From the NCBI GenBank assembly GCA_035489575.1, contig DATHJY010000002.1, positions 15,080 to 79,079 on the forward strand: a stretch of 64,000 bases of DNA, given 5' to 3'. Position numbers and translations under genes: made by a program. Below, one piece after another: positions 10,290 through 29,959 of this stretch. The DNA comes from Verrucomicrobiia bacterium. GTDB taxonomy: Bacteria > Patescibacteriota > Saccharimonadia > Saccharimonadales > JAGQNK01. Each line of letters opens with the position of its first letter. Positions within the stretch are counted from its first letter, which is position 1. The notes under the pieces were generated by a model. That model worked only from the letters and a program-made list of their open reading frames with translations. It had not been told where the DNA came from and searched no databases.

Positions 10290-10445
10290 GGGCCCATAGC
10301 TCAGCCGGTTAGAGTGAGAAATGCCTGTGGCATTTCGCAAGGGAACCTTCCGATGAAAACTTGTTTTCAGTCGCGAAGTTCCGGGGTCGCTGAAAGTGAC
10401 CCTGCCTTTTAAGAAGGGTGAGAGGTGAGTCGTGGGTTCCCCTGA
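10290..10445 (+). pseudogene. tRNA-Lys-derived pseudogene / tRNA-like element with an insert of about 86 nt
   Basis: Bases 10290-10314 are identical to the first 25 nt of the intact tRNA-Lys. A hairpin-rich insert follows. Then come a degenerate anticodon arm (CCTGCCTTTTAAGAAGG) and a truncated T arm (GTCGTGGGTTCCCC). No 3' acceptor strand is present. Confidence 0.55.
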
Positions 10446-10474
10446 CAGCTGCCGTACATTACAATCATTTTTGT

Positions 10475-10551
10475 GGGCCCATAGCTCAGCCGGTTAGAGC
10501 ACCTGCCTTTTAAGCAGGGTGTCGTGGGTTCGAGTCCCACTGGGCCCTCCA
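10475..10551 (+). tRNA. tRNA-Lys (anticodon UUU) with encoded CCA
   Basis: Hand-folded cloverleaf: GGGCCCA/TGGGCCC acceptor stem, GCTC/GAGC D stem, CCTGC-CTTTTAA-GCAGG anticodon arm, GTGGG-TTCGAGT-CCCAC T arm, then T-CCA. Confidence 0.92.
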
Positions 10552-12177
10552 AGAACTTATAACTGGCTCAAGAGCCGCTTCCATATCTCTGGTGGCGGCG
10601 TTTTTGTTTTCGGTTCGTACCTTCAAGAAACTTCTCTCAATTTCTGGGTATTTTTCGCCTATTGGGACGAGCCATTCATTCGGCTCTATAAAGAGTCTGT
10701 TATCTTGTAGCACAAGGTTTTTGCCTAAGGTCTTGAGTATCTCACGTTTGGTTCGTATGTCGCCGCTTTGGAAATGGATACGAGCGTAGGCAGCAAAGTT
10801 AAATGCTTTCTCGTTTAGCTCCATCCAATTCTCGGCTCGCTTCTCCGTATTCCGTAGCTGCTGGTCCAGGCTATCAATATCAACTTGCAGACGGCTTTTC
10901 TGATGCTTGTACTCCTCCTCATCTATCAACTCACGGTGTAGATAGTCAATGAGGCTGTCCCGCTGCGACTGCAGCTGCGCTCGTTTCTTGACGTTCTTGC
11001 CGTACATCCGCTCACGTTCGCTAACTTCAAGCTTATTGTTGCGGCGTAGTATCTTGAGTGCCAAGTCTTTGAACTCAGGGATTATCGTATACTTGCCCAG
11101 CTCCTCGTCTATATTGCTTTCAATGACCTCCAGTGGGGTATACACGGTCTGGTTGCAAGGACGGTCCATACTTTTTCGTGAGCAGTAATAGTAAACATAT
11201 GTTTTGTACTGTCCCTCGCTTTTTACGTACTTGGTGCGATGACGTGCCTGGACCAAACAATTACAAATGCCACAGCGAATCATACTGCTGAATGCGTAGT
11301 CAAAGTTACCGACACGGTGGTTGCCACGGTCGCCAAGTATCTGCTGAACTGTTTTGTACTCTTCCCAGGTAATCATCGGCTCGTAGTTACCCTTATGCAG
11401 GATTCCGTTATGCTCAAAATATCCAGCGTAGAAAGGGTTCCTGAAAATACGATACAGTTCGCTCTTACCTATGAGCTTGCCACCTGTCTTCGGTGTTTTC
11501 GGCATAACGAAGTTCATTTCTTCGAAGGCAATCTTCCATATTTGGCTTGGCGTGTATCCACCACCTAATAGGAAGGCAAACATACGCCTAACATCTTCAT
11601 ACCGCTCGGGGTCCTTACCGGTTTCCGTAACTATCTTATTGTCTTTCGGGCGAATAATGACCTGACCGTTGCTGTCTAATTGGGGTACTTTCATATATCC
11701 AGGAGGCACACGTCCTGGCTTTTCGCCAGTACCAGCCTTGGTTGCCAGCCCGCGCTTAACGTCCTTACCTTGTTTGGTGCTTTCGTACTGAGACTGGTTC
11801 ATTGTCATCTGCAGCATCATTATGCCTTCGGGCGAACTGTCAAAATTGTAAGAGCAGAACTTTAGGTCTTTTAAGGCTCCTCGCAACATATAAGTAATTT
11901 CGGCACTATCGATTTCATTTCTTGATAACCGGTTAGGGTGCCAAGCAACGATTGCATCTGCTTCGCCGTTTTTTATTGCGTCCATTAACTCTCTGAATAC
12001 TGGTCGTCCAGGTGTAAAAGCACTTTTACTTTCAGGGTCCATCCACCTGACAATATTCAGGTTACCGAACTGGCTTTTTATATTTTCAATCTGGCTAAGA
12101 TGCGACAGTTCCTGCTTTTCTTTGCTTTCGGATGATTTGCGTACGTAGGCGATATATCGCAGTTTCTGGGTTTTCAT
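10510..12177 (-). CDS. Large serine recombinase (integrase)
   Basis: YIAYVRKSSESKEKQELSHLSQ is the resolvase catalytic-Ser region. A recombinase domain follows, then a Cys cluster (CGICNC...YYYCSRK...CNQ) and a coiled-coil tail. The last 14 codons are antisense to the tRNA-Lys 3' half. Confidence 0.9.
   Translation of the reverse strand: MKTQKLRYIAYVRKSSESKEKQELSHLSQIENIKSQFGNLNIVRWMDPESKSAFTPGRPVFRELMDAIKNGEADAIVAWHPNRLSRNEIDSAEITYMLRGALKDLKFCSYNFDSSPEGIMMLQMTMNQSQYESTKQGKDVKRGLATKAGTGEKPGRVPPGYMKVPQLDSNGQVIIRPKDNKIVTETGKDPERYEDVRRMFAFLLGGGYTPSQIWKIAFEEMNFVMPKTPKTGGKLIGKSELYRIFRNPFYAGYFEHNGILHKGNYEPMITWEEYKTVQQILGDRGNHRVGNFDYAFSSMIRCGICNCLVQARHRTKYVKSEGQYKTYVYYYCSRKSMDRPCNQTVYTPLEVIESNIDEELGKYTIIPEFKDLALKILRRNNKLEVSERERMYGKNVKKRAQLQSQRDSLIDYLHRELIDEEEYKHQKSRLQVDIDSLDQQLRNTEKRAENWMELNEKAFNFAAYARIHFQSGDIRTKREILKTLGKNLVLQDNRLFIEPNEWLVPIGEKYPEIERSFLKVRTENKNAATRDMEAALEPVISSWRAQWDSNPRHPA
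10543..10553 (+). repeat. Left copy of the 11-nt direct repeat GGCCCTCCAAG (candidate att core, tRNA 3' end)
   Basis: Identical 11-mer at 26872-26882. Confidence 0.4.
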
Positions 12178-12212
12178 AACACTCTCCTTGAGTCCAAAAA
12201 GGGACGGTTCCT

Positions 12213-12303
12213 GTTGACCCAGTTACCAAGAAGGCTTCTGGCAGAACCGCCCCTTAACAGGCAGAAGTGCATAAAAAAACTTCTTGGCACGAACTGGGTC
12301 AAC
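12213..12303 (-). promoter_or_regulatory. Long imperfect inverted repeat between the 62-aa gene and the recombinase gene
   Basis: GTTGACCCAGTTACCAAGAAG ... CTTCTTGGCACGAACTGGGTCAAC. On the - strand it is followed by CCCTTTTT and then the AAGGAGAG RBS of the recombinase. Confidence 0.3.
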
Positions 12304-12311
12304 GCTTAATA

Positions 12312-12500
12312 TTATACCTCCTTTGGCTTATTTATTGCTGCGTTCACTTTTAATACGATTCCATTAATCATTTGAAGCGACTGCTGCAGCTGCGTATTAT
12401 CAGGCTCCTTTTCCAGATGGTCGATTACAGTCTCACGGTCTAATAGGACTGCAAAGCCTATCTCTCTCAACTCATCTCTACTAAAACTTACCTTAATCAT
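12312..12500 (-). CDS. Hypothetical small protein (62 aa)
   Basis: ORF in the island's leftward operon. No motif recognised. Confidence 0.4.
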   Translation of the reverse strand: MIKVSFSRDELREIGFAVLLDRETVIDHLEKEPDNTQLQQSLQMINGIVLKVNAAINKPKEV

Positions 12501-12547
12501 TTCATCTCCTTTATTAATAGTTGAATGGCTGCTGCGGTTAAAAAGGC

Positions 12548-13060
12548 CTAGGGTCCACGGACCGATTTGCTAGCTATCAGTCTTTGCCGGTGTTGCTGGA
12601 AGTTATTTTTATTAACCGCTGCTACGGTATTTTTTGTAGTAGTCTCTCTGGTAATCTTTGTAATAGTTTCGCCATTTGGGACATAGTAGTTCGGTGGATT
12701 TGGGTAATCCAGTTTGCGGGATTCCTTCAAACTGGGAAGAATATTATGTAGTTCTTCCAGTTTTACTCTGAAGTGTCGTTTTGCAGGTACTTGAGCCAGC
12801 TTGTAATCAATAACATCGAGCTTGACGAGCTTCTTAATGGCTGTTTCTTGATTACTACGTGTTAAGCCCGTCTCCGCTTCGATGTCCGCAGCAGTCTTGT
12901 ATATCCAGCCAGATTTATCCTTGCCCTTACCGTGCCAATAAAGCAACTGTGAAAGTAACAGCCCTGCGTTTACACCGAACACTTGGCCAAGACCACCTAT
13001 GTAAAGCAGTGGCTTCTTTGAAAAATATTTAGCTATCGCTTGCTGCTCGGGCTTGCTCAT
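12548..13060 (-). CDS. Winged-helix DNA-binding protein (replication-initiator/DnaD-N-like)
   Basis: The ATG at 13060 follows GAGGA. LLSQLLYWHGKGKDKSGWIYKTAADIEAETGLTRSNQETAIKKLVKLDVI looks like the wHTH of phage/plasmid replication organisers. Confidence 0.45.
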   Translation of the reverse strand: MSKPEQQAIAKYFSKKPLLYIGGLGQVFGVNAGLLLSQLLYWHGKGKDKSGWIYKTAADIEAETGLTRSNQETAIKKLVKLDVIDYKLAQVPAKRHFRVKLEELHNILPSLKESRKLDYPNPPNYYVPNGETITKITRETTTKNTVAAVNKNNFQQHRQRLIASKSVRGP

Positions 13061-13253
13061 TACTAGTATCCTCATATTCATTTTTTGCGGTATACGCTGC
13101 TGACTGCTCTTGTGTGATTGGCTTGTAGACCTCATACATCTGACGCACCAAGCACAAAAGCTGGTGTCGTGCAGTTTTTTCGTCCAGCTCAATCCCGAAC
13201 TTTGTCTTATAAAGTTGTTGGAACTGCCGTATATCAGAGGTAGTCAGGTCCAT
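13029..13253 (-). CDS. Hypothetical small protein (74 aa)
   Basis: ORF in the island's leftward operon. It overlaps the next gene by about 32 nt. Confidence 0.4.
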   Translation of the reverse strand: MDLTTSDIRQFQQLYKTKFGIELDEKTARHQLLCLVRQMYEVYKPITQEQSAAYTAKNEYEDTSNEQARAASDS

Positions 13254-13255
13254 TA

Positions 13256-13498
13256 CTACTCTCCGTAAATCCTGCTTTTAAGTCGCTTTGTATTCTCGAA
13301 ATATCCAAGTGCACCAACGGCCAAGGAACCATTCCAGTACTCCTGAACTAGGCTGTTGACCTCTGTCGATTCAACAAATACAAAAACAGCTCGTCTGGGG
13401 TTTTCCTTGTTAACCCTGACGAGCAGCACGTTACAGGCAAGCAGTGCAGCTGCTAAGCCTAAGTCTGATGTCTCATAGTAATTTTCTGCCGTATTCAT
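13256..13498 (-). CDS. DUF5659-like small protein
   Basis: YETSDLGLAAALLACNVLLVRVNKENPRRAVFVF...LVQEYWNGSLAV...KRLKSRIY fits the DUF5659 pattern common in CPR genomes and phages. Confidence 0.55.
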   Translation of the reverse strand: MNTAENYYETSDLGLAAALLACNVLLVRVNKENPRRAVFVFVESTEVNSLVQEYWNGSLAVGALGYFENTKRLKSRIYGE

Positions 13499-13525
13499 TT
13501 CCTAGTCCCTTGACCGAGACAGGAA

Positions 13526-13585
13526 ATAAAAAAGTCGCTAAGACAGAATTATTCCCTATTTCGGGAACGAAACTGTCTTAACGAC
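13526..13585 (-). terminator. Terminator-like hairpin in the 5' leader of the leftward island operon
   Basis: Stem of 13 bp (12/13 paired): GTCGCTAAGACAG / CTGTCTTAACGAC, with an inner TTCCC/GGGAA hairpin. On the - strand it is followed by TTTTTTATTT, about 30 nt before the 13498 start codon. Confidence 0.4.
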
Positions 13586-13714
13586 ATTTATTCGATTAAA
13601 TTTCTAATGTACTACCCCTATTATACCATTTGTTAACGGCACTTAAAGCATTTTGTTACAATTAAATCAAAAGATGAGTATGAAAATCCAAATAATAAGA
13701 ATTGGAGCATACTC

Positions 13715-14428
13715 GTGGCAACAGAGACTACAAGTAAAAAGGTTGGAAGGCCGTCCAAAAAGGACGACGAGAGCTTTGATGCTGTCAAAAAATTACTGGC
13801 TGCTTTTTGGCGTGGTGCAAACGTAACCGAGGCCTGCATTTACGCTGGTATATCTCGTGAAACGTACTATCACTGGTGTCGTGAAATACCAGAGTTTTCT
13901 GACACTATTGCTGCTGCCAGAACAAAAGTCAGCGAGAACGCAAAGGCGGTAATTGTCGATGCCATAGATAACGGCGATATTAGTGCAGCAAAATGGTGGT
14001 TAGAGCGTAGGAATAAAAAGGAATTTGGGCCAAACGCAGTTGATGACCCTGAAATGCCGACTGAAACAGAAATACTAGAGGCGCAGCTGCAGCAAAACAT
14101 TAACAAGGGCATTGCGGACAAATACAGAGTCTACCTCTTCCGTAAGCGAGAGGAACATCTGGCTGCGTACAGCAAGAAAGATGAATATATGATTTCCAGA
14201 ATTGACAGGCTGATGCAGCTGTCTGACAAGGAACTTGCTGATTATGCTGGCGTTGAAGTATGGGCAACTGGCTCTGATTACGCAGGGGTCAGGAGACAGT
14301 TGATAATAAGGTTCGGTGGCGAAAACTACGAAGACCTAATTCCGTTGGCCGAAGAAACAGCAGAAAAATACGATTCAATGATAACAAGTGAGCCAGCCCC
14401 AGACAGTAAAAACTATACTACACAATAA
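13715..14428 (+). CDS. Phage terminase-small-subunit-like HTH protein
   Basis: GTG start with a GGAG RBS. GRPSKK...VTEACIYAGISRETYYHWCREIPEFSDTIAAARTK...AAKWWLERRNKKEFG follows the TerS N-terminal pattern (GRP..., HTH, ...KW.LER...K.FG). Confidence 0.5.
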   Translation: MATETTSKKVGRPSKKDDESFDAVKKLLAAFWRGANVTEACIYAGISRETYYHWCREIPEFSDTIAAARTKVSENAKAVIVDAIDNGDISAAKWWLERRNKKEFGPNAVDDPEMPTETEILEAQLQQNINKGIADKYRVYLFRKREEHLAAYSKKDEYMISRIDRLMQLSDKELADYAGVEVWATGSDYAGVRRQLIIRFGGENYEDLIPLAEETAEKYDSMITSEPAPDSKNYTTQ

Positions 14429-14500
14429 TTCCATTTAGTTTTACCCCGTTACAGAGTACAATAAGATACAAATAACAGATGAATATGACGATGTAGACTT

Positions 14501-17089
14501 ATGCAAGACACGATTGACGACCAGAAACTTACCAAGGACTTCTTTCGCTTGCAAATTGAACAGCGTGATAATACCTACAACAAAAGCTTTTTCGACGAGA
14601 TAAATTCCAGGCTAATATTTGAGCAGTTAAAGGAGCCGGACGACCTTAAAGACGACTTAGCTCTAGTTACGCCAGAGGACCCTACCGTTCTCCTTATGGT
14701 GGTTGTCGAGAGTCTCCTTGCCCTGTTAAAGTATGACGTTTCTAGCGGCAGCAAAACAACTCTAAAAGATATTAAACCTGGCGATAGTGTTGGGCTAATT
14801 GAGAATCGAGTAATGTATCCCGGGCAGTTCCTGGGTAAGACTGTAATCCATGGAAAGAATTACTTTTCAGTTAAAAGGCTCGACAATGGAATGGTGGAAA
14901 GTATCCCTGAAGGTACGGGTAGGGAGTGGAGAATACAGCCGTACACATCGACAGACAATGCGAGTCGTACGCGAAGAACGAAAGTATATGGTAAGAAAAT
15001 CGAGCATATGTTGGAACTACCCAGCGGAGGATTAAAAACTTTTCAAAAATCAAAAATGCTTGTTGTAGCACCTGATAAAAGTGGCTTAATAGATGCAATC
15101 CGTGGAGTAAAGATTGGGGACGACCCGCTAGAGGCTATTTTCCCAATAGCAGATTACACTTCAACGGAAGACTGGCATTACGTCGGCTCGTTTGGTCTTA
15201 ATAACCTAAAGCAGGAGCCAATAATTGGATTAGTAGCAAATTGCGACATGGCTGTTGATATAGCAATGAAGGACCCGTCATACAAACTACTGGTGGTTGA
15301 CAGTGCCTCCAAGCTTCGAGCACATTATGGAAGTATTGAAAGATTAAATTCGGATACAAATCCTAGGAAAGTTCTTTGCTTGCTCCGTTCTGCAGATGAA
15401 GACGAATTAAAGACGTTGCATTCTATGGGAATCGAAAGTTATGTATGGAAAAGGGGAGATTTTAAGGGTATTGATACTGCTTCCTATCTACAAGAAAACC
15501 CAAACGAGCCCTTTGATAAACATAGCCAGATAGTCAGCTATTTGGCCGGGGAAGAGCCTGAGTTTCGTGAAATAAGTCTTCCAACCGACATAGAAAAGCA
15601 AGTCGAAGAATCTTACAGAATCCTCTACTCGCTGAGCAAACAGGTATCCCCTCTTCCGGAATCAGGCATTTTAATTCGCTGGGGAATCTCACTAATAAAT
15701 GGCTGGCTGCAACTGCCTTTTACTATCTATGACTTCCATGAATATATTGCCAAATACAACATTCCGACTAAGAGAATGGATGAAAAATATTCGGATTTCA
15801 AAAATCGAATTAGGGAATCCTACGGTCTCCTTATTCCTGCAATGCATTCAAGTATGTGCGAAGAACTTATTTCTAAGATGGATACATTATACGAATACTT
15901 CTCAAAGCATAGTCCAAAAAGCGAAGCAATTCTGGCTTTACTAGAAACAAATACCAACGATGCTACTTATGTTTATTGCTGCAGCCCTCAATATACGGCT
16001 GCTTTCAATAAGCTGAGGGGTAACAAGCGAATTCAAGCCAAAAATATTGAACAGCTAAGTTCGATGCCAGTAAAACGTGGAATTATTACAGGTTGGAGTA
16101 ATAGAAGAAACGCTGCTCAAGGCTTTCTTGCACCAGTAAAGAACCCCGTATTCATTCTGTACCGCAAGGAACTGGAAAGTCTGCAGCGTGTTTATAAGAC
16201 TCATCCTAGCTCTCCTGAGTCATCGTATGACAAAGTAGCCAGACAATCCCTCGGTGGTGTTGATACTACCTCAAGCGTTACTCTCTCGGACTCAGAAGAA
16301 GGCCAGTCCATAGAGTCGATTCTGGAGTACATTACACAGAAATTTAACACACCGCTCTATCCCAATTACGATTCCTCATACAACGGTACCGAACAAGAGG
16401 GTGTAGAAGCTCGCCAGATACAGTTTGATGATGGAACAATGGTTTATGCTGATGCCCAACACAAGTTTGATAAGCTAGAGCGTTCGAAGCACAAGATACT
16501 TAGAAGCAAAACAATCGAGATTAGTGAAGGCGATGAACTTGTATTTGCTGATTCCGAACGCAGTATGTTTGAAGAGTTACTCAGCATCTTGAAAGAATCA
16601 GAAGAGTACAGGAGCGTAGCAGCTACTGCGAATATCTGGAGAGACGCGTTACAAAAATACGTAGAAAGCAGTAATTCATCTGACCAGGAACTGGCTGGCA
16701 TGTTTAGGTTAGTCGGCTGTCCTCGAACAATACACACTATTCGCTCATGGCTAAGCGGTAATGTAATTGGTCCGTCCAATGATAACTATGCTGCGATTGA
16801 GGCCATTGCTAGAATTACCAAGGACCAGGCATTGATAGCAAATCGTGATGAGGTAATACGAGCGTGTAAGACTCTCCATGCTCTTCACGTTAAAACTGGC
16901 TGGCTCCTAGTAAGGAATATTATTAATTCAGCGATTGAACCAGACGACAGCGATGTAAATGAGGAAACACGTGAAAGGCTACAAGCCTATTCGGGAAGTT
17001 CTCGCATCGCAATCGTGAAATCAATATCAGAACAAACTTTCAGTGTGCCTGTCTCAGAAATCGGCAGATTAAATGAGGGTTTCTCATGA
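14501..17089 (+). CDS. Large protein of unknown function; first gene of the defence operon (DrmE-position candidate)
   Basis: 862-aa ORF whose stop overlaps the next start (ATGA at 17086-17089). I found no Walker A, nuclease or methylase motif by eye. Confidence 0.6.
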   Translation: MQDTIDDQKLTKDFFRLQIEQRDNTYNKSFFDEINSRLIFEQLKEPDDLKDDLALVTPEDPTVLLMVVVESLLALLKYDVSSGSKTTLKDIKPGDSVGLIENRVMYPGQFLGKTVIHGKNYFSVKRLDNGMVESIPEGTGREWRIQPYTSTDNASRTRRTKVYGKKIEHMLELPSGGLKTFQKSKMLVVAPDKSGLIDAIRGVKIGDDPLEAIFPIADYTSTEDWHYVGSFGLNNLKQEPIIGLVANCDMAVDIAMKDPSYKLLVVDSASKLRAHYGSIERLNSDTNPRKVLCLLRSADEDELKTLHSMGIESYVWKRGDFKGIDTASYLQENPNEPFDKHSQIVSYLAGEEPEFREISLPTDIEKQVEESYRILYSLSKQVSPLPESGILIRWGISLINGWLQLPFTIYDFHEYIAKYNIPTKRMDEKYSDFKNRIRESYGLLIPAMHSSMCEELISKMDTLYEYFSKHSPKSEAILALLETNTNDATYVYCCSPQYTAAFNKLRGNKRIQAKNIEQLSSMPVKRGIITGWSNRRNAAQGFLAPVKNPVFILYRKELESLQRVYKTHPSSPESSYDKVARQSLGGVDTTSSVTLSDSEEGQSIESILEYITQKFNTPLYPNYDSSYNGTEQEGVEARQIQFDDGTMVYADAQHKFDKLERSKHKILRSKTIEISEGDELVFADSERSMFEELLSILKESEEYRSVAATANIWRDALQKYVESSNSSDQELAGMFRLVGCPRTIHTIRSWLSGNVIGPSNDNYAAIEAIARITKDQALIANRDEVIRACKTLHALHVKTGWLLVRNIINSAIEPDDSDVNEETRERLQAYSGSSRIAIVKSISEQTFSVPVSEIGRLNEGFS

Positions 17090-18801: not shown

Positions 18802-18813
18802 CCGTATAAGATA

Positions 18814-21800: not shown

Positions 21801-22188
21801 AGAGAAAGCACTTCACGCTGTTATTATCACTCTTGTGCGTCATTACATGGGCATACAGTCAGGAAAAGAGCTTAGTAGTTTCAAGCCGAGTGATAAAAAA
21901 TTCCAAGAAATAGTCGCCTCAATACTAAGTCGAGTTAAGCAGGTTGATGATACAGAAGTCGACAAAACTAAGGAAGAAATTGATAAAATAGCCGAAACAA
22001 TATCAGAATTAGGACTGCTAGGAGATGGGGCGGTGTTCGGTTCTTCAAACCCCTTGGGTAATCATGGCAAAGCTGCGTTAATGCGTACCCCAGCTGATAA
22101 AAAAGGTGTGGGAAGGTACTCAACGTTACAATCAATGAGGAGCACAGACGTTGAGGCTTCAATTAGATTGGACCACGGACATGAGTAG
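18814..22188 (+). CDS. drmA: DrmA-like SF2 DExH helicase (DISARM-type)
   Basis: WFPTGGGKTEAYLGL, IIQDELHLISG, LLATNMISVGVDIDRL and QATSRVGRAYPG, with a long N-terminal region that has no obvious motif. It sits directly upstream of a DUF1998 gene. Confidence 0.7.
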   Translation: MMNMKNNPYQDFRQEMIDFLELDIIGPKSGIEVIEEAPTSRYSAGILFPQLVDNDEEVNERKEKLDMRSRDEEEGTIEYATSFFPSAMGISFSIDDTVRQLIIQVDTARYDSLESSDLGLVSCRATSISDAYMQNAAFTEKFDYKDGQLSLKSSFSKTERDYFISVHPDNKQFAKILYKMFRLQNGWKRIPISEKVELNLTGSRTEYKIEGEQLQIVVISKPSRNGKKLCTVSLINTSKTSQSQNDHKLAYFQTSIKLTSKSGVEVFEDLSTTEYISSDPEEASLKLLFRNKRYFATGHGCSADWESGGKLASAVYSVTIPRHIIPQMSFDIKSRDGSNVPNLKMATLAYSKQDEIIKELKLLVATYENWIDDLSAQSKTLDKSLNSVSLEHIESCRESASRMNSGINFLGKNPKAMRAFNLANEAMLMQRVHTNLQSKKKFPDEGHAMPDSYDDSDAKKPATWRPFQIAFLLMEVESLVNNESNFKDIVDLIWFPTGGGKTEAYLGLTAFTIFYRRLTHSDDESGGTTVIMRYTLRLLTSQQFQRACTLICACEKLRSNSSDLGDTAITIGLWLGQSTPYSIKDAEFRLADLMRQVDGSYNNPFQVLSCPWCGTHMVKKQSKGVNAYRAITRPRHRFVMYCPNRGCDFFDELPISIVDEDVYHQAPTLLFGTVDKFAMLPWKPEASKIFALDEGNKNLSPELIIQDELHLISGSLGTVVGLYESAIDLMCSAKGSKPKIIASTATIRRAKQQCNALYARDFRQFPSPGLDASDSFFAREADVTSDSPGRLYIGVMPSGTTSTWMQIKLMAGMSQGAEFIVADDEVKDKFWTQVVYCNSIRELGTSMSLAYDDVKAYSDSVAKRLGKKARVYSDKDVQELTSRISPESIPKILQRLSVEYPSQEVIDTLLATNMISVGVDIDRLGLMLVLGQPKTTSEYIQATSRVGRAYPGLVITLYGPTKSRDRSHYEQFAKYHQSLYRYVEPTSVTPFSAPVREKALHAVIITLVRHYMGIQSGKELSSFKPSDKKFQEIVASILSRVKQVDDTEVDKTKEEIDKIAETISELGLLGDGAVFGSSNPLGNHGKAALMRTPADKKGVGRYSTLQSMRSTDVEASIRLDHGHE

Positions 22189-24004
22189 ATTTAGCAATGA
22201 TAAAAATTCAAGTCAGCCTACGCTGAGACGCAGTCAAACAGTAACAACTTTCGGTATTGGTGCCATAGCTGACTTGCCAAACGCATCATTAATGGTGTGC
22301 GGAATTGATAAGTGGGACCCACAGCGAGGTATTAAATTATATGACCCACGCCTAGAAAAAAAATTAGGGGCTAACTACTTCTTAATGGCCCCGGAAGCAC
22401 CAATTGATGGGATTGTCGCGGTCCGTTTTCCTAGATGGATGCGATGTCGAAATAAGTTACATAATGCCTTGATGCCGTTAGAGGATTGGCGAGAATCAGC
22501 AGTAGCAACATCACGCTTTAGTTCTTTCGATGAAAGACCTTATTGCCACGTTTGTTCGCTTGACTTGATACCTTCCAGGTTTGTCGTTGCTTGCCGGAAG
22601 GGACATATTGATGACTTCCCATTCATTGAATGGGCACATACAGGCAGAGATATTTGTAGTAAGCCAAAACTTGAATACAGAGAACTGGGAAACTCATCCA
22701 GCCTTTCAGGGATTATTATTCATTGTGGAACGTGTGGCTCGAGTAGAAGTATGGGTGGTTCGTTTGGTAGAGACAATATAGAGAAAATAGCTCACTGCAA
22801 AGGCTCTATGCCCTGGGAGATGATATGGAGTAGCCAATGTGGAGAAAATCTAACCACTCTGCAACGTGGTGGTACGAATGTACACTTCCCAGTAATTAAG
22901 AGTTCAATACTGATACCGCCTCATTCAACAGAGGGGCTGAAGTCAAGAATCATAGATACCCCTCTTTGGGCGGCATTTGAATCCCAGCAGAACGCAGAGG
23001 ACTTAGAATTTTATCTTGAAAGAATATCAGCTCAACTTACTGAGCCTATTGAAAAGGTTCGAGCTATTGTGAACGAAATGATGGGAGATGACGAAGACAA
23101 GGGAGATGGTAAAAATGAGGAAGAGTACAGGTATGAGGAGTACCTGGCTTTCATGGGCGAGTATGACGATAGCCTTAACAATAAGAAAGATTTCCTTATT
23201 GAGAAGCAAGATGCCGCAAAGTATAAACTTTCCTTCGTTGACTCAGTCGTACTAGTAAAAAAACTTCGCGAAATCCGAGTACAAACAGGATTTTCTCGCA
23301 TAAGACCTCCCCAAGCTTCTGATGATGCATCGGTAAAGGATGATGAAAAGATAGAAACTATGTCGGTCACGCAAAATAAACGTTTTCGATGGAAGCCAGG
23401 CTATGAAGTAAGAGGCGAAGGAATATTTATAGAATTTAAGCCAAGTCAACTTAGGCAATGGGCAAAAAATCCCAGAACAGCTGCTCATTACAAGAACTTA
23501 CTTGTAAGGAACCAGAAAAACCCCGATTCATTTGGTGTTGTAGATGAATTAACGCCAGAGTTTATATTTTTGCACACACTAGCACATCTACTTGTTAGAC
23601 AACTCAGTTTCGAATGTGGGTATTCGAGTTCTGCGTTAAGAGAACGGCTATACTGTACTTCAAGTTCAAAGGGTAAACCTATGTACGGGATTCTCATATA
23701 CACCGCCGAAGGCGATTCGGACGGAACTCTCGGTGGGTTAGTAAGGCAGGGAGAGGCAGACTTATTCCCAGATACTGTCATGAAAGCAGTTACAGAGGCA
23801 CAATGGTGCTCTAGCGACCCGTTATGCATTGAGTCTGATGGACAGGGTTACCAAGCTTTGAATTTAGCAGCATGCCATTCCTGCTGCATGTTACCTGAAA
23901 CCTCATGTGAGTTGATGAATAGATACCTTGATAGAGCAGCAATTGTAGGTACACTAAGCGACCCAGAGATAGGTATATTCTCTGAGGAGCTTAACCAGCT
24001 ATAG
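22181..24004 (+). CDS. drmB: DrmB-like DUF1998 protein
   Basis: The ATG at 22181 overlaps the upstream stop by 8 nt. Cys clusters are present (CHVC...C, CGTCGS). The C-terminal LAACHSCCMLPETSCELMNRYLDR matches the DUF1998 signature. Confidence 0.75.
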   Translation: MSRFSNDKNSSQPTLRRSQTVTTFGIGAIADLPNASLMVCGIDKWDPQRGIKLYDPRLEKKLGANYFLMAPEAPIDGIVAVRFPRWMRCRNKLHNALMPLEDWRESAVATSRFSSFDERPYCHVCSLDLIPSRFVVACRKGHIDDFPFIEWAHTGRDICSKPKLEYRELGNSSSLSGIIIHCGTCGSSRSMGGSFGRDNIEKIAHCKGSMPWEMIWSSQCGENLTTLQRGGTNVHFPVIKSSILIPPHSTEGLKSRIIDTPLWAAFESQQNAEDLEFYLERISAQLTEPIEKVRAIVNEMMGDDEDKGDGKNEEEYRYEEYLAFMGEYDDSLNNKKDFLIEKQDAAKYKLSFVDSVVLVKKLREIRVQTGFSRIRPPQASDDASVKDDEKIETMSVTQNKRFRWKPGYEVRGEGIFIEFKPSQLRQWAKNPRTAAHYKNLLVRNQKNPDSFGVVDELTPEFIFLHTLAHLLVRQLSFECGYSSSALRERLYCTSSSKGKPMYGILIYTAEGDSDGTLGGLVRQGEADLFPDTVMKAVTEAQWCSSDPLCIESDGQGYQALNLAACHSCCMLPETSCELMNRYLDRAAIVGTLSDPEIGIFSEELNQL

Positions 24005-25043
24005 GCACGGCTTGGGTAACAAGGCTTGTTAGACCTGACTCTTCTTTAGCAGGAGCTTTAGCAATTTCTTCTTGAGAAAGCTGTTCGTAAACCTGATTCG
24101 CTAGAGATTCAATGACTGGCACACACACAGAGTTGCCAAACTGTCTGTAAGCAGGTGTTTTTGCTAAGGGAAGTTCAAATGAGTCTGGGAACCCCATTAG
24201 TCTTGCACACTCGCGCGGAGTTAGCATTCTTGGGTTTTTGCCTTTTTGCACAACCAGATTCTCGCGGCCATCCTTACCGTACCTGGACGTAAGCGTGTTA
24301 GCGATACCGTTTGGGTCAACCATGTAGTGTCTAAAGCCATGTCCCTTTTCCTGATTTCGTATAGTTCGGGCTTTATGGGACTCCCAAAGCCTGTCTGAAA
24401 TCGTGAATCGTGAGTCAGGGTTTTTTTCAAATATTTCTTTTACTGAACTTACCTTAGGCTCAATATCCTTAAACTGGAATTTATTTTCAAGATTAGCTAC
24501 CATATAAATTCTTTTTCTTCTCTGTGGTAGCAGAGTAGAAGCATCGATTACTTTGTATTCGAAAAGATAACCCATATCTTCAAGAGATTTTTTAATCGTT
24601 GCGAGCGTCTGACCCTTTTCGTGCTTTTCCAAATTAGCAACATTCTCCAAGAACACCACTGATGGCTTATGGTATTCAACAATTCTTATAATTTCAAAGA
24701 ATAAGTTGCCCTGCTTTTCATCCTTAAAGCCATGAGCACGCTTTAGGCCATATCGAGCCGATATTCCAGCTAAAGAAAAGGGCTGGCAGGGGAAGCCAGC
24801 GCAAAGAACATCAAATTTGGGTATTTCTTGCTCATTCACATCGCGAATATCACGTGTGTCTATTTTGCCTTCAAAATTTGCTGCATAGGTAGCTGCTGCG
24901 CTCTTGTCATACTCGTTTGTGTATACGCACTCAAAACCAGCTCGTTCAAAACCAAGCCGAATACCGCCTATACCCGCAAATAAATCTATAAATTTAATAC
25001 TTTTTTTGTGTTTTGACATTGGAATACTAATATATTTTACCAT
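23991..25043 (-). CDS. DNA (cytosine-5) methyltransferase (DrmMII-position)
   Basis: FIDLFAGIGG (motif I), GFPCQPFSLAG (motif IV), VVFLENV (motif VI) and QFGNSV near the C-terminus. Alternative starts lie at 25049 (GTG) and 25019. Confidence 0.9.
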   Translation of the reverse strand: MVKYISIPMSKHKKSIKFIDLFAGIGGIRLGFERAGFECVYTNEYDKSAAATYAANFEGKIDTRDIRDVNEQEIPKFDVLCAGFPCQPFSLAGISARYGLKRAHGFKDEKQGNLFFEIIRIVEYHKPSVVFLENVANLEKHEKGQTLATIKKSLEDMGYLFEYKVIDASTLLPQRRKRIYMVANLENKFQFKDIEPKVSSVKEIFEKNPDSRFTISDRLWESHKARTIRNQEKGHGFRHYMVDPNGIANTLTSRYGKDGRENLVVQKGKNPRMLTPRECARLMGFPDSFELPLAKTPAYRQFGNSVCVPVIESLANQVYEQLSQEEIAKAPAKEESGLTSLVTQAVPIAG

Positions 25044-25140
25044 GCACACCCCCGAAGCCAGGTTGGTTTACTAAAGCCTCTGTACGTATTATATGACCGT
25101 AAGGGCAATATGCGTAATTAATAGATACGGAAGGAAAGAT

Positions 25141-25374
25141 ATGAGTGATAATAACTTGATAATCAGCATTGAAGAAGCAAGGGAAATACTTGGTTCTGAT
25201 GCGCAAGGCATGAGTGATGAAGAAATTACTCAGGTTATAAGTACTCTTGATATATTGGCTAAGGATGCGCTGGAGTTGGCTAAACTGCAACTGCGGAGAA
25301 AGAAAGATGCCAAGGACCTGGCCAATCTTATCTACGACATTTACCAGGATAAGAAGAAAGCCGGAAAAGACTAA
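25141..25374 (+). CDS. Hypothetical small helical protein (77 aa)
   Basis: The ATG follows GGAAGGAAAG. The protein is charged and helical with no recognisable motif. Confidence 0.35.
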   Translation: MSDNNLIISIEEAREILGSDAQGMSDEEITQVISTLDILAKDALELAKLQLRRKKDAKDLANLIYDIYQDKKKAGKD

Positions 25375-25376
25375 CA

Positions 25377-25550
25377 TCATTTTTTTTCGCCTTTCTGCCT
25401 TTGAGACCTGTCCATTTCTATAAGGATTTCAAAGTATCCCACAAGGTTACTGACAGCTTCCCTGTAATCATCATCTGTATCGTAGACAATGCCGTCTTTG
25501 GCAAAGACTTCCTTCCATCGTTGTAGTTGTTCGTCTGTTAATTCAGTCAT
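25377..25550 (-). CDS. Unlisted 57-aa acidic ORF 4 nt downstream of the DUF4238 gene
   Basis: Manual translation: MTELTDEQLQRWKEVFAKDGIVYDTDDDYREAVSNLVGYFEILIEMDRSQRQKGEKK. Same strand as DUF4238, so co-transcription is likely. Confidence 0.35.
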   Translation of the reverse strand: MTELTDEQLQRWKEVFAKDGIVYDTDDDYREAVSNLVGYFEILIEMDRSQRQKGEKK

Positions 25551-25554
25551 TTAA

Positions 25555-26787
25555 TTAATGATATTGTTTCTTTCCTTGGAGCGAAAGATGATACTCGTGC
25601 ATTGTATCGGTGTCCTGTTCGCTACCAAGTTCGCCAATCTCTAAAGTTACTCCTCGCCTCGTTGGGCCAAACCTTCTAGCAAATTCGCCCTTAAAACGGT
25701 AAAGAGGGCTCTTGCTCAAGTCAGTTGGTAAATCGTCCTTACTGAATAAGGGGTCGTTAGGCCTTCTACCATAGGAATCGACTGCCCACTTTGTACCAGC
25801 ACCAGAACTACCAAATATCTCGCCACCATAATTCATCGACCTGGGGTCGGGCATACACAGAATTCCATTACCAAAGATATTCCAATCTGACTTTGAGATA
25901 TCTCTCTCAGGATAAAGCCACTCTTCTTTGCCAGATGCAATGAACATATACGCACGACTCTTGATAATAAAGTTAAGCTGTTTTACTTCAAGTTCAGATA
26001 GTTTTCTGTTGAGGTGGAGTCGATGAAAATCAAAAACGGTATTTCTATAGAAACCGGGATTTGGTCTAAGGTTTTTGGAAGACTGATAAGGGTTCCTTAC
26101 CCAGGATAGATTTGTAAGAATGAGTGCTTTGTTCAGATTAAGCGGGAATACGGTGTGAGAGCCTACCATACGAATATCAGGGTCGCGAAAACCCTTGCAC
26201 CACGTTGGCTGTCTTGGACCCAACTGACGGTTGTAAATCGTAATTGGGTGGTCAGAGACAATAAACTTTGTATCAGAGTCAGCAGCATCTACTAATTGCC
26301 AAACACACTCAGTCCAAATGGCATCGAATACATTTTTAAGTTCAACCATTCTCCTAAGAATTTCGTTGGTATCATTTGAGTTAATTTGCTCAGATAACCA
26401 AACCAAACCTTTTTTTGTTCGCATCCTCTGTGTCGTCATGTATTGCAATAGGTCCCCAATGGGCTCGCCGCGCCAGTCGGGGTATTGATAGTTTATGAAG
26501 TGGTCCACTGCATCTTTACCTTTGGTATCTATTGCTCCAAAGAATAGTCTTTCAATATCACGCGACTCTAATCCGCTAAATCTAGTAGTATAGAGGTCGT
26601 CTTCCGCGAAACACCTGCTAGGATGCCACTTCTTCAACGGCTTTGCATAATGCAGCCTCCCTTTTGAATCACGAAATCCCTCTGGTCTTAACCGTAGGTA
26701 AAAATAACTGCCGTCAGTAGAGTCGGGTGAAATAAAGTTTTTTTGATACCACTCGGGTACGTAATGGTTGTATTTAAAGCCAGGCAT
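25555..26787 (-). CDS. DUF4238 domain protein
   Basis: The N-terminal NHYVPEWYQKNF matches the hallmark HYVPxFYLxxF start of DUF4238. The mid-region FIVSDHPITIY also fits. Confidence 0.7.
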   Translation of the reverse strand: MPGFKYNHYVPEWYQKNFISPDSTDGSYFYLRLRPEGFRDSKGRLHYAKPLKKWHPSRCFAEDDLYTTRFSGLESRDIERLFFGAIDTKGKDAVDHFINYQYPDWRGEPIGDLLQYMTTQRMRTKKGLVWLSEQINSNDTNEILRRMVELKNVFDAIWTECVWQLVDAADSDTKFIVSDHPITIYNRQLGPRQPTWCKGFRDPDIRMVGSHTVFPLNLNKALILTNLSWVRNPYQSSKNLRPNPGFYRNTVFDFHRLHLNRKLSELEVKQLNFIIKSRAYMFIASGKEEWLYPERDISKSDWNIFGNGILCMPDPRSMNYGGEIFGSSGAGTKWAVDSYGRRPNDPLFSKDDLPTDLSKSPLYRFKGEFARRFGPTRRGVTLEIGELGSEQDTDTMHEYHLSLQGKKQYH

Positions 26788-26871
26788 ATCATAATTCTAT
26801 ACGTTAGCAACAGAATGTGTTAAAGAAGAACCCTTATTGCTAGATATTTTGGTTGCAACAGCGATACATAC

Positions 26872-26882
26872 GGCCCTCCAAG
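26872..26882 (+). repeat. Right copy of the 11-nt direct repeat GGCCCTCCAAG (candidate att core / displaced tRNA 3' end)
   Basis: Identical to 10543-10553, and followed immediately by a terminator hairpin. Confidence 0.4.
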
Positions 26883-26917
26883 CAAAAAGACCTGTCCAAA
26901 AAGGCAGGTCTTTTTGC
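26882..26917. terminator. Bidirectional intrinsic terminator
   Basis: Perfect 13-bp stem GCAAAAAGACCTG / CAGGTCTTTTTGC with a 10-nt loop. An A-run and a T-run flank the GC core. Confidence 0.6.
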
Positions 26918-26930
26918 TTAGGAAAATTCA

Positions 26931-27020
26931 GCGAGGGACTCGAATCCACGACACGCCAAAAGGGTGCCCGAGGGTAAAAACAGCCCTATGGTTGCTATGC
27001 AACATTCCCAGTAGCGGCCC
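26931..27020 (-). pseudogene. Degenerate tRNA-Lys-like remnant in inverted orientation
   Basis: The reverse complement reads GGGCCGCTA...(insert)...GCACCCTTTTGGCGTGTCGTGGATTCGAGTCCCTCGC. GTGTCGTGGaTTCGAGTCCC matches the tRNA-Lys variable/T arm with 1 mismatch. The acceptor stem cannot pair. Confidence 0.35.
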
Positions 27021-27043
27021 TGTCGCCAAATTGAAAGAACTCA

Positions 27044-27442
27044 TCAAAAAGGGTTTGTAATTTTCAGCGCACCTATCTGGCGGCCGTCTTGCATGTCCTC
27101 ACTGATCAATGTCGTGACACCAGAGTTTTGCGCTGCTACGACAATCAGGGCATCCCAAAAGGACAAACTGTGCTTCTCCTCCAGCTCTGACGCGGCGATT
27201 ATGTCAGCAGGGGTTGGCTGATAAATTTGCCAAGCTGATAACTCTTTTATAATTTCTCTGGCTTCCTGTCTGGGAAGCGTTTTGGCTAGTTTCCGGGTGA
27301 CTGTCACATAGAATTCCTGCAGCACCTGCGTGCCCGAACGATTATTCCAACATTCTGTCAAGATATCCTGGGCTTTTTTGTGCTTGTCGCTTTCTTCTTT
27401 ATCGAAAGCGTAAACGAGTACGTTAGTATCCAGAAATGTCAT
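27044..27442 (-). CDS. vapC: PIN-domain toxin (VapC family)
   Basis: MTFLDTNVLVYAFD..., a conserved acidic residue pattern, and a start that overlaps the antitoxin stop (ATGA). Confidence 0.85.
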   Translation of the reverse strand: MTFLDTNVLVYAFDKEESDKHKKAQDILTECWNNRSGTQVLQEFYVTVTRKLAKTLPRQEAREIIKELSAWQIYQPTPADIIAASELEEKHSLSFWDALIVVAAQNSGVTTLISEDMQDGRQIGALKITNPF

Positions 27443-27681: not shown

Positions 27682-27708
27682 GATAGCAAAGTTACGTGCT
27701 ACACGCAA

Positions 27709-29298: not shown

Positions 29299-29316
29299 TG
29301 ATTCAGTATCTCCTGC

Positions 29317-29595: not shown

Positions 29596-29681
29596 TAGAT
29601 TCCTCTCAAGGTTATAGCGAAAGTATACCAGTTATTAGCGACCCGCACTCCTCCGTTGAGCCATGAGACCCACTCTACTTA

Positions 29682-29923: not shown

Positions 29924-29959
29924 CAGAACAAAACTTAAAAAAACACCTCTCTGACCTGC

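Follow-up and report, generated by a model that had tools for sequence, protein, structure and literature searches.

A DISARM-bearing island at the 3′ end of a Patescibacteria tRNA-Lys gene, very probably integrated by its own large serine recombinase

We analysed a 64,000-nucleotide stretch of a Saccharimonadia-like (Patescibacteria) chromosome (the window) and conclude that positions 10554-26882 are, very probably, a 16,329-bp integrative mobile element placed at the 3′ end of tRNA-Lys(UUU) by its own large serine recombinase (LSR). The island flank is syntenic with Saccharimonadales MAGs that bear LSR islands at the orthologous tRNA-Lys. An earlier note, made from the letters alone, had proposed an LSR island of about 16.3 kb at 10552-26871. 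That proposal is now backed by the recombinase configuration at 67 of 80 homologous loci, the repeats of six relatives, the spacing of an attP-derived arm, and relatives that exist in free form. The cargo is a class-2 DISARM anti-phage system without DrmC.

Island boundaries and composition

ARAGORN and Rfam (RF00005, 74 bits) both placed an intact tRNA-Lys(UUU) at 10475-10551 (+), with its T-loop GTTC at 10528-10531. This gene is the integration target and provides the left arm of attB. Its last nine nucleotides, including CCA, form together with the following AG the attL copy of an 11-bp core, GGCCCTCCAAG (10543-10553, +). The attR copy lies at 26872-26882 (+), where the earlier note had seen the 11-mer recur. 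These are the only two occurrences in the window, even when one mismatch is tolerated, while base composition predicts about 0.013 copies on the same strand.

A hairpin directly follows the second core copy. Positions 26880-26896 pair with 26903-26919 in a stem of 17 pairs (-26.1 kcal/mol, z = -8.4); an A-run precedes it and a T-run follows. The hairpin had been described as a perfect 13-bp stem; its presence right after the repeat was correct, and its length was underestimated. We assign 26880-26919 (+) as the native tRNA terminator, bidirectional in form and now 16.3 kb from its tRNA. A different hairpin with a T-run, borne by the island and recovered by single-sequence folds and RNAalifold, lies just past the tRNA at 10574-10610 (+), antisense within the LSR coding region. 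Across 19 Lys-type islands, RNAalifold gave 10 pairs, 7 of them with compensatory changes, next to a conserved T-run. Judged from these folds, this hairpin is a likely replacement terminator for tRNA-Lys.

The island has a GC content of 42.5%, compared with 51.9% in the left flank and 52.4% in the right. In 2-kb windows the two ranges did not overlap (maximum inside 0.453, minimum outside 0.493), such that composition does change at the island. Earlier hand counts of 37-40% versus 57-60% had the direction of the shift right and its size exaggerated. GC is also atypical to the right of the island, at 26.9-30.9 kb.

Both junctions recur in other assemblies, the left in JGI 3300020034 and ENA ERZ27268085 and the right in Logan SRR7026570, and are therefore not assembly artefacts. 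Searches of genome, metagenome and viral collections for the exact empty attB and for the circular junction of this island, two checks the earlier note had proposed, were negative. The sole island-free contig (L002) aligns in its flank to the window only at 26880-26919. Its tRNA differs in the T-arm and the acceptor 3′ strand and contains a C:C mismatch; recombination or chimeric assembly may account for this contig. In a contig from the same sample (L087), the island is joined to unrelated DNA at tRNA position 22 rather than at the core. Two contigs of ERZ27268082 break at tRNA-Lys, compatible with population heterogeneity.

The recombinase, its predicted tail exchange and the att sites

The LSR gene (10510-12177, -) encodes an intact protein of 555 aa with Resolvase, Recombinase and Zn_ribbon_recom domains (PF00239, PF07508 and PF13408; PHROG integrase, 3e-69). 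The family-invariant R13 and S15 are present, as are the zinc-ribbon cysteines; R13 and S15 fall at the expected place of the serine-recombinase nucleophile motif. Its best NCBIfam scores were far under all equivalog cut-offs (XisF, 72 bits vs 375). As the earlier note had read it, the ORF runs antisense into the tRNA. The overlap comprises the final 42 nt, 13 codons ending in WRAQWDSNPRHPA plus the stop, and the stop codon is formed by A37-U36-U35 of the anticodon loop.

This configuration is shared across the family. More than 700 LSR homologues were found, and a tRNA-antisense tail ends nearly all of the top 120. The LSR ORF enters a tRNA 3′ end in 67 of 80 homologous genome loci, nearly all in Patescibacteria MAGs, with tRNA-Lys (20), Ser (18), Asn (8), Gln (6), Tyr (5), Trp (4), Asp (4), Gly (1) and Arg (1) as targets. 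Six independent tRNA-Lys relatives (L008, L010, L013, L014, L021 and L025), with islands of 7.7-11.5 kb, carry the same core repeat, 10-12 bp long, at the far end.

When the LSR tail was reconstructed for the excised form, it remained open for 24 codons (WRAVCIAVATK...). The earlier note had suggested that excision changes the C-terminus, and the predicted tail is indeed encoded by the unintegrated relatives L084, L088 and P0104. L084 carries the attP form. The circular L088 spans 8,060 bp, and the ends of this contig overlap by 30 nt, as expected of a circular molecule if the assembler used k = 31. The attP-form gene arrangement appeared again in shorter contigs from two further runs, and the attP-form tails reconstructed for seven islands match those of the free forms.

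The attP-derived P arm, GGTTGCAACAGCGATACATAC (26851-26871, +), was recognised by its match to the arm of L025 and by its spacing. The two arms are identical at 20 of 21 positions, though the L025 LSR is only 64% identical. Within the P arm, a GTTG (26852-26855) is set 5 bp more distant from the core than is the T-loop GTTC of the tRNA. The GTT[CG] motif is displaced outward by the same 5 bp in 10 of 11 islands, and it occupies the same place in the attP of L084. This offset matches the published shift of the ZD motif in serine integrases, from positions 11-19 in attB to 16-24 in attP (PMC3783163). The P′ and B′ arms showed no clear symmetric motif, and TTCGAA in P′ is accounted for by conserved Phe-Glu codons.

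Taken as a mechanism, these features suggest that the LSR would recombine a short attP, straddling the 3′ end of its own gene, with an attB made up of the last ~25 bp of tRNA-Lys(UUU) and the start of the tRNA terminator. Crossover would occur within the shared core, probably near GG|CC|CT, a dinucleotide placed from spacing only. In attB the zinc-ribbon domain may read the T-loop, GGTTCGAGT, and in attP a T-loop-like copy, GGTTGCAAC, 5 bp further out. Serine integrases usually tell attP from attB by such a motif shift. Upon integration, tRNA-Lys stays intact, and the element would bring a new hairpin and T-run terminator antisense to the LSR C-terminal codons. The last 24 LSR codons of the attP form (569 aa) would be replaced by 10 tRNA-encoded codons (555 aa).

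Cargo and backbone genes

The DISARM genes form a compact operon. It begins with DrmE (14501-17089, +; NCBIfam DrmE_fam 296 bits, cut-off 80; Pfam DrmE_C), followed by a protein with a NERD nuclease domain and a UvrD-like helicase (17086-18801, +; Pfam NERD 2.4e-13; PADLOC RTasNERD-Hel 3e-50). Next are the DrmA helicase (18814-22188, +; NCBIfam DISARM_DrmAS 965 bits, over the equivalog cut-off of 950; PADLOC 2e-225) and DrmB (DUF1998/MZB; 22151-24004, +; NCBIfam DrmB_fam 494 bits, cut-off 240; PADLOC 1e-79). A C5 cytosine DNA methyltransferase, DrmMII, lies on the opposite strand (23991-25049, -; Pfam 5.7e-89; PADLOC DrmMII 3e-110). Class-2 DISARM reportedly consists of DrmE-DrmA-DrmB-DrmC-DrmMII. 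The island differs from this arrangement in its lack of a PLD-type DrmC and in the NERD nuclease/UvrD-like helicase gene between drmE and drmA. The last island gene encodes a DUF4238 protein of 410 aa (25555-26787, -; Pfam 1.4e-16).

Together with the LSR, the remaining genes, which comprise an initiator, small ORFs and a TerS-like gene, make up a backbone shared with related elements. Adjoining the LSR is a conserved replication-initiator-like protein (O-like/DnaD-like; 12548-13192, -; PHROG 9773, 6e-27; PHROG 6493, 3.5e-16), present in six of eight compared elements and matching DnaD_N in L088. On identical contigs this gene was called with a later start, giving 170 aa. A 74-aa ORF (13029-13253, -), called as a gene in ERZ27268085, stands in place of a conserved ~70-aa family, as judged by positional equivalents, and is a possible directionality factor or regulator. 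No recombination directionality factor was identified in the element. The 80-aa DUF5659 protein (13256-13498, -; Pfam 3.8e-13) is likewise conserved in six of eight elements and is also found in L084 and L088. As this backbone is common to the 7.7-11.5-kb relatives, which are also found as free circles, the element is best described as an integrative replicon.

Divergent from the backbone operon is a TerS-like protein (13715-14428, +; PHROG terS, 2e-20), similar over its N-terminal ~110 aa to the small terminase subunit of Sf6. A profile of five family members matched Sf6 gp1 (PDB) at 2e-5 over residues 3-114 of 140, and all five matched PF20901 at E<=0.1, where the window protein reached 24.6 bits, short of the gathering cut-off (27). 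In Foldseek, Sf6 TerS topped the list, yet with an E of 0.3.

Alternative explanations and comparison with known systems

The element is possibly a PICI-like phage satellite, although we consider this somewhat doubtful. Helper infection would trigger excision, replication by the Rep protein and TerS-like packaging into helper capsids, with DISARM as an accessory protecting host and satellite. Such a lifestyle fits an integrase at one end, divergent genes, the initiator-like and TerS-like matches, element sizes of 7.7-16.3 kb, the free circular relatives, and the failure to detect any gene for a capsid, portal, large terminase or lysis. However, the TerS-like family was detected in just five of eight compared elements, and the window protein, with its sub-threshold Pfam score and weak Foldseek match, could also be a plain HTH regulator or an excision factor. 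In addition, IMG/VR viral contigs gave no LSR relative, and no helper phage is known. It is also conceivable, if unlikely, that the overlap of gene and att site, instead of reflecting compaction, acts as a regulatory switch. Integration would then give the LSR a new C-terminus and set the end of its gene antisense to a strongly transcribed tRNA, which might alter enzyme stability, activity or expression in the integrated state, by analogy with the integration-dependent immunity of mycobacteriophages such as BPs. The overlap persists at 67 of the 80 loci, which span nine tRNA specificities and LSRs as little as ~36% identical; all reconstructed attP forms stay open for 16-35 codons beyond the core, none with an immediate stop, and integrated tails finish in -PA, -AA or -SA. 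Against this, the conservation of integrated tails is fully explained by tRNA conservation, and attP-form tails vary in sequence and length once past the ~8 codons that double as the P-arm binding motif.

Quite improbable, in our estimate, is an immobilised relic that was inserted once by the LSR and is now inherited vertically, retained for DISARM, with the tRNA-encoded tail a harmless by-product. The negative searches for an empty site and a circle of this copy are in keeping with a relic, as are the lack of a recognised directionality factor and the recurrence of the same junctions in all samples that allowed them to be read. In contrast, the LSR gene is untruncated and keeps every family-invariant residue, neither att site shows damage, the P arm shared with L025 included, and the reconstructed free-form tail is open. 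The island GC is still 10 points under that of the host, and the two ERZ27268082 contigs that break at the tRNA fit a heterogeneous population. This copy may still be mobile. We regard as extremely unlikely that the 11-bp repeat is a coincidence and that an AT-rich block arrived by homologous recombination at a hotspot or by a since-lost tyrosine integrase. Two or more matches did occur in 33 of 100 window shuffles with one mismatch allowed, and the atypical GC at 26.9-30.9 kb could be read the same way. But an exact second copy is expected 0.013 times, and it lies at the GC step, immediately before a tRNA-type terminator and adjoining a P arm that related islands share and that shows the proper 5-bp offset. 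A scan of ten large island ORFs revealed no tyrosine recombinase, and the core repeats of the six related islands contradict a chance origin.

Integration by the island's own LSR can be compared with several known systems. Phage and ICE large serine integrases (Listeria A118/LI, Bxb1, phiC31, SPbeta SprA, staphylococcal CcrB/CcrC and Anabaena XisF) share its three-domain architecture, short att sites, a ZD-type motif that attP places 5 bp further out than attB does, and an integrase gene adjoining attP. They target protein-coding genes, and the enzyme class is not known for targeting tRNA genes, whereas the target here is a tRNA 3′ end and the present clade occurs almost only in Patescibacteria MAGs. 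A further difference is that attP lies within the integrase ORF here, so that the C-terminus differs between the free and integrated states. Mycobacteriophages BPs and Brujita and SSV1-type archaeal viruses similarly have attP inside a coding gene whose product is altered by integration. Integration affects the repressor gene in BPs, whose enzyme is a tyrosine integrase, and divides the tyrosine integrase gene into two parts in SSV1; here, as predicted from the reconstructed tails, a serine integrase would exchange just its last 10-24 codons. SaPIs/PICIs and the PICI-like tycheposons of Prochlorococcus are likewise islands of ~8-16 kb that occupy tRNA or fixed sites, carry int, rep and terS-like genes and lack those for virions; large serine recombinases are a minority among tycheposons (27 of 937; bioRxiv 2020.12.28.424599). 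Unlike these, the present island has no known helper phage, its TerS assignment is only moderately supported, and its host is a Patescibacteria epibiont.

Tyrosine-integrase tRNA/tmRNA islands (Islander-type) share the tRNA 3′-end target, a regenerated tRNA, an integrase adjoining it and defence cargo. They differ in enzyme family and chemistry and usually duplicate a longer stretch of the tRNA 3′ half, compared with just 10-12 bp here. The phiRSM-type small serine recombinases, from Ralstonia filamentous phage, also serve as site-specific integrases of a mobile element and reportedly integrate at the tRNA-Ser 3′ end. These enzymes are resolvase-sized, without recombinase and zinc-ribbon domains, and are unrelated to the present clade except in the catalytic domain. 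They were named as a clade by Mageeney et al. 2020, who saw tRNAs used by 44.5% of tyrosine-integrase elements but by only 14 of 297 serine-integrase elements, and who termed the latter previously unreported (PMC7192596). The tRNA-targeting LSRs described here form a widespread and apparently undescribed clade.

Boundaries of the island at tRNA-Lys

The left edge of the island is a canonical tRNA-Lys(UUU) gene (10475-10551, + strand; ARAGORN and Rfam), into which the gene for the large serine recombinase (LSR; 10510-12177, - strand) runs from the opposite side. As the earlier note had read it, the final 42 nt of this ORF are the tRNA in antisense and encode the tail ...SSWRAQWDSNPRHPA and its stop. 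The residues W-R-A come from the CCA end together with the discriminator and the first bases of the acceptor stem, and the stop codon is formed by A37-U36-U35 of the anticodon loop. The core repeat GGCCCTCCAAG, which had been proposed to mark both ends, was found in the window at two positions, 10543 and 26872, and permitting one mismatch added no others; about 0.013 same-strand copies would be expected by composition. The hairpin described at the second copy is present, but its stem of 17 bp is longer than had been stated. An A-run and a T-run lie on its sides (-26.1 kcal/mol, z = -8.4). The shift in GC content also held (42.5% in the island versus 51.9% and 52.4% in the flanks, with no overlap between 2-kb windows inside and outside), although the hand counts had overstated the contrast.

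Identical left and right junctions occurred in independent assemblies (L001, L086 and L085), so the island structure is not an assembly artefact. The attL, attR and contained integrase by which Mageeney et al. (2020) recognize an element are all found here, with the LSR inside bar its last 42 nt. The exact empty attB junction GAGTCCCACTGGGCCCTCCAAGCAAAAAG was unmatched in 185,579 species genomes, and the exact circle junction of the island was unmatched in IMG/VR. Two pattern scans of JGI metagenomes, using the terminator and the tRNA 5' flank, gave no match; the collection scanned evidently lacked the sample of L001, though L001 is itself from JGI. The PIN and KAS III-like proteins of the right flank had no exact protein on record.

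Two contigs from ENA ERZ27268082 departed from the window at this locus. In L002, the tRNA that follows the left flank breaks at about position 48 and continues with a foreign 3' half. A terminator comes immediately after it, and its only alignment in the window is to 26875-26928 (75% over 57 nt). This contig was considered as a clean attB, but it is not decisive, as its tRNA has a different T-arm and a different 3' strand in the acceptor stem, with a C:C mismatch as the result. In L087, the island continues to tRNA position 22, followed by an unrelated 1.1-kb spacer and a tRNA-Lys(CUU). Because this break is at position 22 and not in the core, L087 was rejected as the same island at a second site or as proof of transposition; the contig represents a rearrangement or a chimeric assembly. 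Both contigs may reflect strain differences at the tRNA-Lys locus or chimeric assemblies.

Just past the native terminator, which is bidirectional in form, window 26930-26975 (- strand) holds an inverted, degenerate tRNA-Lys 3' half from the anticodon stem to the T-arm, with 19 of 21 nt identical over the variable region and T-arm (by eye). In the related loci L008 and L025, an intact tRNA-Lys(UUU) in that inverted orientation adjoins orthologues of window 32.4-48 kb and has itself been targeted by related islands. The arrangement points to a rearrangement or to two tRNA-Lys genes that once formed a convergent pair. At 30-80 nt upstream of the tRNA, window 10395-10450 (+ strand) contains a tRNA-Lys-like fragment, ccctgccttttaagaaggg...gtcgtgggttcccc, that has the 11-mer GTCGTGGGTTC in common with the real tRNA. 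Relatives carry a promoter-like TTGAC...GATAAT at this position, and in one of them (L009) a 5' fragment of a tRNA likewise precedes the tRNA itself. To the right of the island, and up to the KAS III-like gene, lie 4 kb of intermediate GC content (26883-30885; 49.1%). This stretch contains a PIN (VapC)/DUF6364 toxin-antitoxin pair (27044-27708), several small ORFs and one ORF of 529 aa that matched nothing in any library (27709-29298). It may represent another variable region of this hotspot. In the dnaK-dnaJ region, two 73-nt segments (3093-3165 and 3876-3948) are 89% identical; on contigs identical to the window, each falls at the beginning of its own gene, and both genes match DnaJ (J-domain) in Pfam.

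A recombinase clade that ends in tRNA genes

The LSR ORF encodes Resolvase, Recombinase and Zn_ribbon_recom domains. Its catalytic domain matched PF00239 across residues 9-152 (3.4e-19), while its C-terminal domains matched PF07508 (29.2 bits; cut-off 21.1) and PF13408 (27.2 bits; cut-off 25.3). Residues R13, S15, R83 and R86 were invariant among 30 homologues, as were cysteines C302, C305, C307, C332 and C341, and residues ~380-460, where the coiled-coil insertion of the zinc-ribbon domain that controls directionality would be expected, are present and alignable.

More than 700 LSR homologues were found at E <= 1e-20. Candidatus Saccharibacteria/Saccharimonadales and other Patescibacteria MAGs supplied almost all of the recombinase relatives. 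Among the top 120 homologues (52-100% identity), nearly all end in ...WRA[QRI..][WR][DG][SL]NP[RG]H[PSA]A and a stop, which is a tRNA 3' half read in antisense. At 67 of 80 genome loci, the recombinase ORF enters the 3' end of an opposite-strand tRNA, the targets being Lys (20), Ser (18), Asn (8), Gln (6), Tyr (5), Trp (4), Asp (4), Gly (1) and Arg (1). Of the remaining loci, 6 have a contig edge no more than 60 nt from where the ORF stops, and 7 have no called tRNA. The configuration is a property of the clade and no accident of one locus. On its left flank, the window has dnaK, dnaJ, rimK and neighbouring genes in synteny with the flanks of L004-L007 (70-90% amino acid identity), loci that carry related islands at the orthologous tRNA-Lys. 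Two loci, L079 and L080, have recombinases with tails that look tRNA-derived (GWDSNPRPID...) and no ARAGORN tRNA call. Their targets may be intron-containing or divergent tRNA genes, as reportedly occur in Patescibacteria.

The far ends of related islands were also located. Six tRNA-Lys relatives (L008, L010, L013, L014, L021 and L025; 7.7-11.5 kb) have a 10-12-bp core repeat there, (T)GGCCCTCCA(AG)(T), and relatives at tRNA-Ser and tRNA-Asp have analogous repeats. By inspection of flank sequence by eye, a terminator-like hairpin lies outside the far repeat in L008, L010, L021, L042 and L059, as in the window. In three tRNA-Ser/Asp loci (L047, L066 and L068), the ~60 nt after the far repeat are those found after the near repeat, namely the recombinase 3' end and hairpin, as though related elements had inserted there in tandem or within one another. 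Past the first island of L021, five successive attR-like units, 0.45-1.2 kb apart, occupy tRNA-oriented positions 18500-21543. Every unit has an attP-derived P arm (AGTTGCGATAAG...CCACGA) along with the core and a flank. The flanks of four units resemble one another and look like terminators; the unit at 20712 has a different one. This array is unexplained by simple serine-integrase integration.

Attachment-site geometry, free forms and a proposed tRNA terminator

The island arm beside the far repeat is conserved (GGTTGCAACAGCGATACATAC in the window, 26851-26871; AGTTGCAACAGCGATACATAC in L025), with the motif AGTTGCnAnAG in Lys-targeting elements generally and AGTTCTrAT in Ser/Asp-targeting elements. 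In 10 of 11 islands, the P-arm GTT[CG] lies exactly 5 bp farther from the core than the GTTC of the tRNA T-loop, an offset that is clear in the left arms only, the right arms (P' and B') having no comparably clear motif. For example, the distances from motif to shared core in the P arm and the tRNA arm are 31 and 26 nt in the window and 29 and 24 nt in a tRNA-Ser element. The unintegrated contig L084 has its GTT[CG] motif at the same place. This geometry fits the structural model for large serine integrases, in which the zinc-ribbon-domain motif occupies half-site positions 16-24 in attP and 11-19 in attB, 5 bp toward the crossover (Rutherford et al. 2013, PMC3783163). Applied here, that register places the central dinucleotide at approximately CC in GG-CC-CTCCAAG, within the repeat. 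A symmetric P' motif, TTCGAA, was considered and rejected, as it corresponds to conserved Phe-Glu codons and its spacing fits neither attP nor attB.

From the aligned arms, we infer that the enzyme probably recognizes attB by the universal T-loop and attP by a mimic of that loop. Such recognition would explain the spread of the clade over many tRNA species. The clade may thus be a tRNA-gene specialist that could shift among its specificities (at least nine) if acceptor-stem recognition alone changed.

The claim that excision changes the LSR C-terminus was borne out at the level of prediction. The integrated form has 555 aa, and joining 26882 to 10554 predicts a protein of 569 aa ending in ...SSWRAVCIAVATKISSNKGSSLTHSVANV and a stop. 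A few homologues have such attP-type tails: P0021 (...WRAVCKTIATKLQDNPTIFITAIG), P0051 (...WRAIVDAVAARINSSPRIHLTALAQ) and P0104 (...WRATVLFISTKVQAGYLTI). On the contig that encodes P0021 (L084), recombinase, core, P arm and cargo follow one another unbroken. This contig was rejected as a circle of L025; both measure 7,750 bp by coincidence, and their LSR regions are only ~66-72% identical. The contig that encodes P0051 (L088; Logan SRR28494071) is 8,060 bp long with a 30-nt terminal overlap. For a Logan assembly, taken to have been made with k = 31, such an overlap would be expected of a circular molecule. It carries an attP-form recombinase (57% identical), a DnaD_N-like Rep, DUF5659, an HTH_3 protein and a BLIP-domain protein, an arrangement also found in two further sequencing runs. 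L088 is apparently a complete free replicon of the family.

Tails rebuilt from seven integrated islands have 16-35 residues and share WRA-x-[VC]-x-x-[IVM]-[AS]-T-[K..] before they diverge. Conservation of these tails at the protein level was considered and rejected, as the conserved part is confined to where the P-arm motif coincides. Constraint on the DNA therefore suffices as an explanation, and these comparisons lend no support to a function of the tail in the protein. Integration could nonetheless act as a switch, in which the swap of C-terminal tails and an mRNA antisense to the tRNA would silence or alter the integrase.

The tRNA at attL remains perfect (74 bits). Every Lys-type island has a hairpin followed by T5-7 at 23-60 nt past the CCA, in the antisense of the recombinase C-terminal codons (the ...TNKKA..KELE.AL... 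stretch). A simple terminator scan missed this island-borne hairpin because its loop exceeds 8 nt, and folding with alignment recovered it; across 19 islands, RNAalifold found 10 pairs, 7 of them with compensatory changes. Since the native terminator has moved 16.3 kb away, we read the hairpin as a putative replacement terminator for the tRNA. The antisense strand of the integrase C-terminal codons would then hold both a replacement terminator and the att core, an unusually dense arrangement.

Gene content, nature of the element and significance

The backbone common to relatives starts at the left end with the LSR and further comprises a replication initiator of O-like/DnaD-like type (12548-13192; PHROG 6e-27), a ~70-aa ORF (74 aa in the window) and DUF5659 (13256-13498). 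It also includes a divergently transcribed protein (13715-14428) that resembles the Sf6 small terminase (TerS) in its N-terminal 110 aa. The 74-aa ORF, DUF5659 and this TerS-like HTH protein are candidates for the directionality factor on which excision by large serine integrases depends. The cargo is a class-2 DISARM anti-phage system with NCBIfam matches to DrmA (965, exceeding the equivalog cut-off of 950), DrmB (494 versus 240) and DrmE_fam (296 versus 80), along with the C5 methyltransferase DrmMII (PADLOC 3e-110). No PLD-type match for DrmC, a component by which class 2 is recognized, was found in any of the ten large island ORFs. Within this DISARM operon lacking DrmC, a NERD nuclease/UvrD-like helicase gene (17086-18801) lies between drmE and drmA; its best PADLOC match is a helicase associated with defence reverse transcriptases, and it may substitute for DrmC. 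Short ORFs at 25027-25550 had no matches in PADLOC and PHROG scans, and a DUF4238 protein is encoded at the island end. Cargo of relatives included C5 methyltransferase genes (L013 and L014) and a KAP NTPase (L084).

We interpret the island as an integrative replicon of Patescibacteria with a tRNA-specific large serine integrase and defence cargo, and on the evidence of sequence we hold the proposed mechanism of integration to be highly probable. An immobilized relic is unlikely, given that the LSR ORF and both att sites are intact and the GC content is still foreign. That the element is a phage satellite in the PICI sense is a possibility we consider less likely than not. It shares with satellites an integrase at one end, its own Rep-like initiator, a size of ~8-16 kb (counting the smaller relatives) and a gene set in which no virion or lysis genes were detected, with no structural matches in Pfam, PHROG or PADLOC. 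Conjugation genes were likewise not detected. The TerS-like protein gives a divided picture: it matched PHROG terS (2e-20), and a five-member profile matched Sf6 gp1 in PDB (2e-5), but its Pfam score is under the cut-off, the top Foldseek match of its AlphaFold model (pLDDT 74.6) is Sf6 TerS at an E of 0.3 only, and the family was detected in 5 of 8 elements. Furthermore, no LSR relatives were found on IMG/VR viral contigs, and no helper is known. Returning to the integrative replicon, a joint reading would combine a T-loop-using, tRNA-specialist clade, an integration switch, and the first satellites or replicons of these epibionts as defence vehicles; as a whole, we give this combination a low probability.

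Serine integrases are the textbook case of integrases that stay clear of tRNA genes. They were not known to target them when a survey described 14 candidate cases among 297 elements, which it called previously unreported and in need of proof (Mageeney et al. 2020, PMC7192596). Among Prochlorococcus tycheposons, a minority (27 of 937) have large serine recombinases. Open-access full-text literature gave no account of this clade, of the gene/att overlap, or of serine-integrase/tRNA elements in Patescibacteria. A coherent clade that targets tRNA genes systematically, with nine specificities, addresses a gap in known serine-integrase behaviour. The T-loop as the zinc-ribbon-domain motif would, if true, explain retargeting between tRNAs. 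Genome engineers may also take an interest in a recombinase family that naturally targets some of the most highly conserved of all biological sequences.

Patescibacteria have genomes of ~1 Mb, and to our knowledge few mobile elements have been described for them. The Saccharimonadia MAG chromosome OY970327.1, for example, measures 1.19 Mb. Of a genome of this order, a 16-kb island would make up ~1.5%. These elements are a concrete vehicle for the exchange of defence systems, with DISARM in the window and methyltransferase or KAP NTPase genes in relatives. If our reading is true, no phage satellite or integrative replicon would have been described before them for these ultra-small epibionts.
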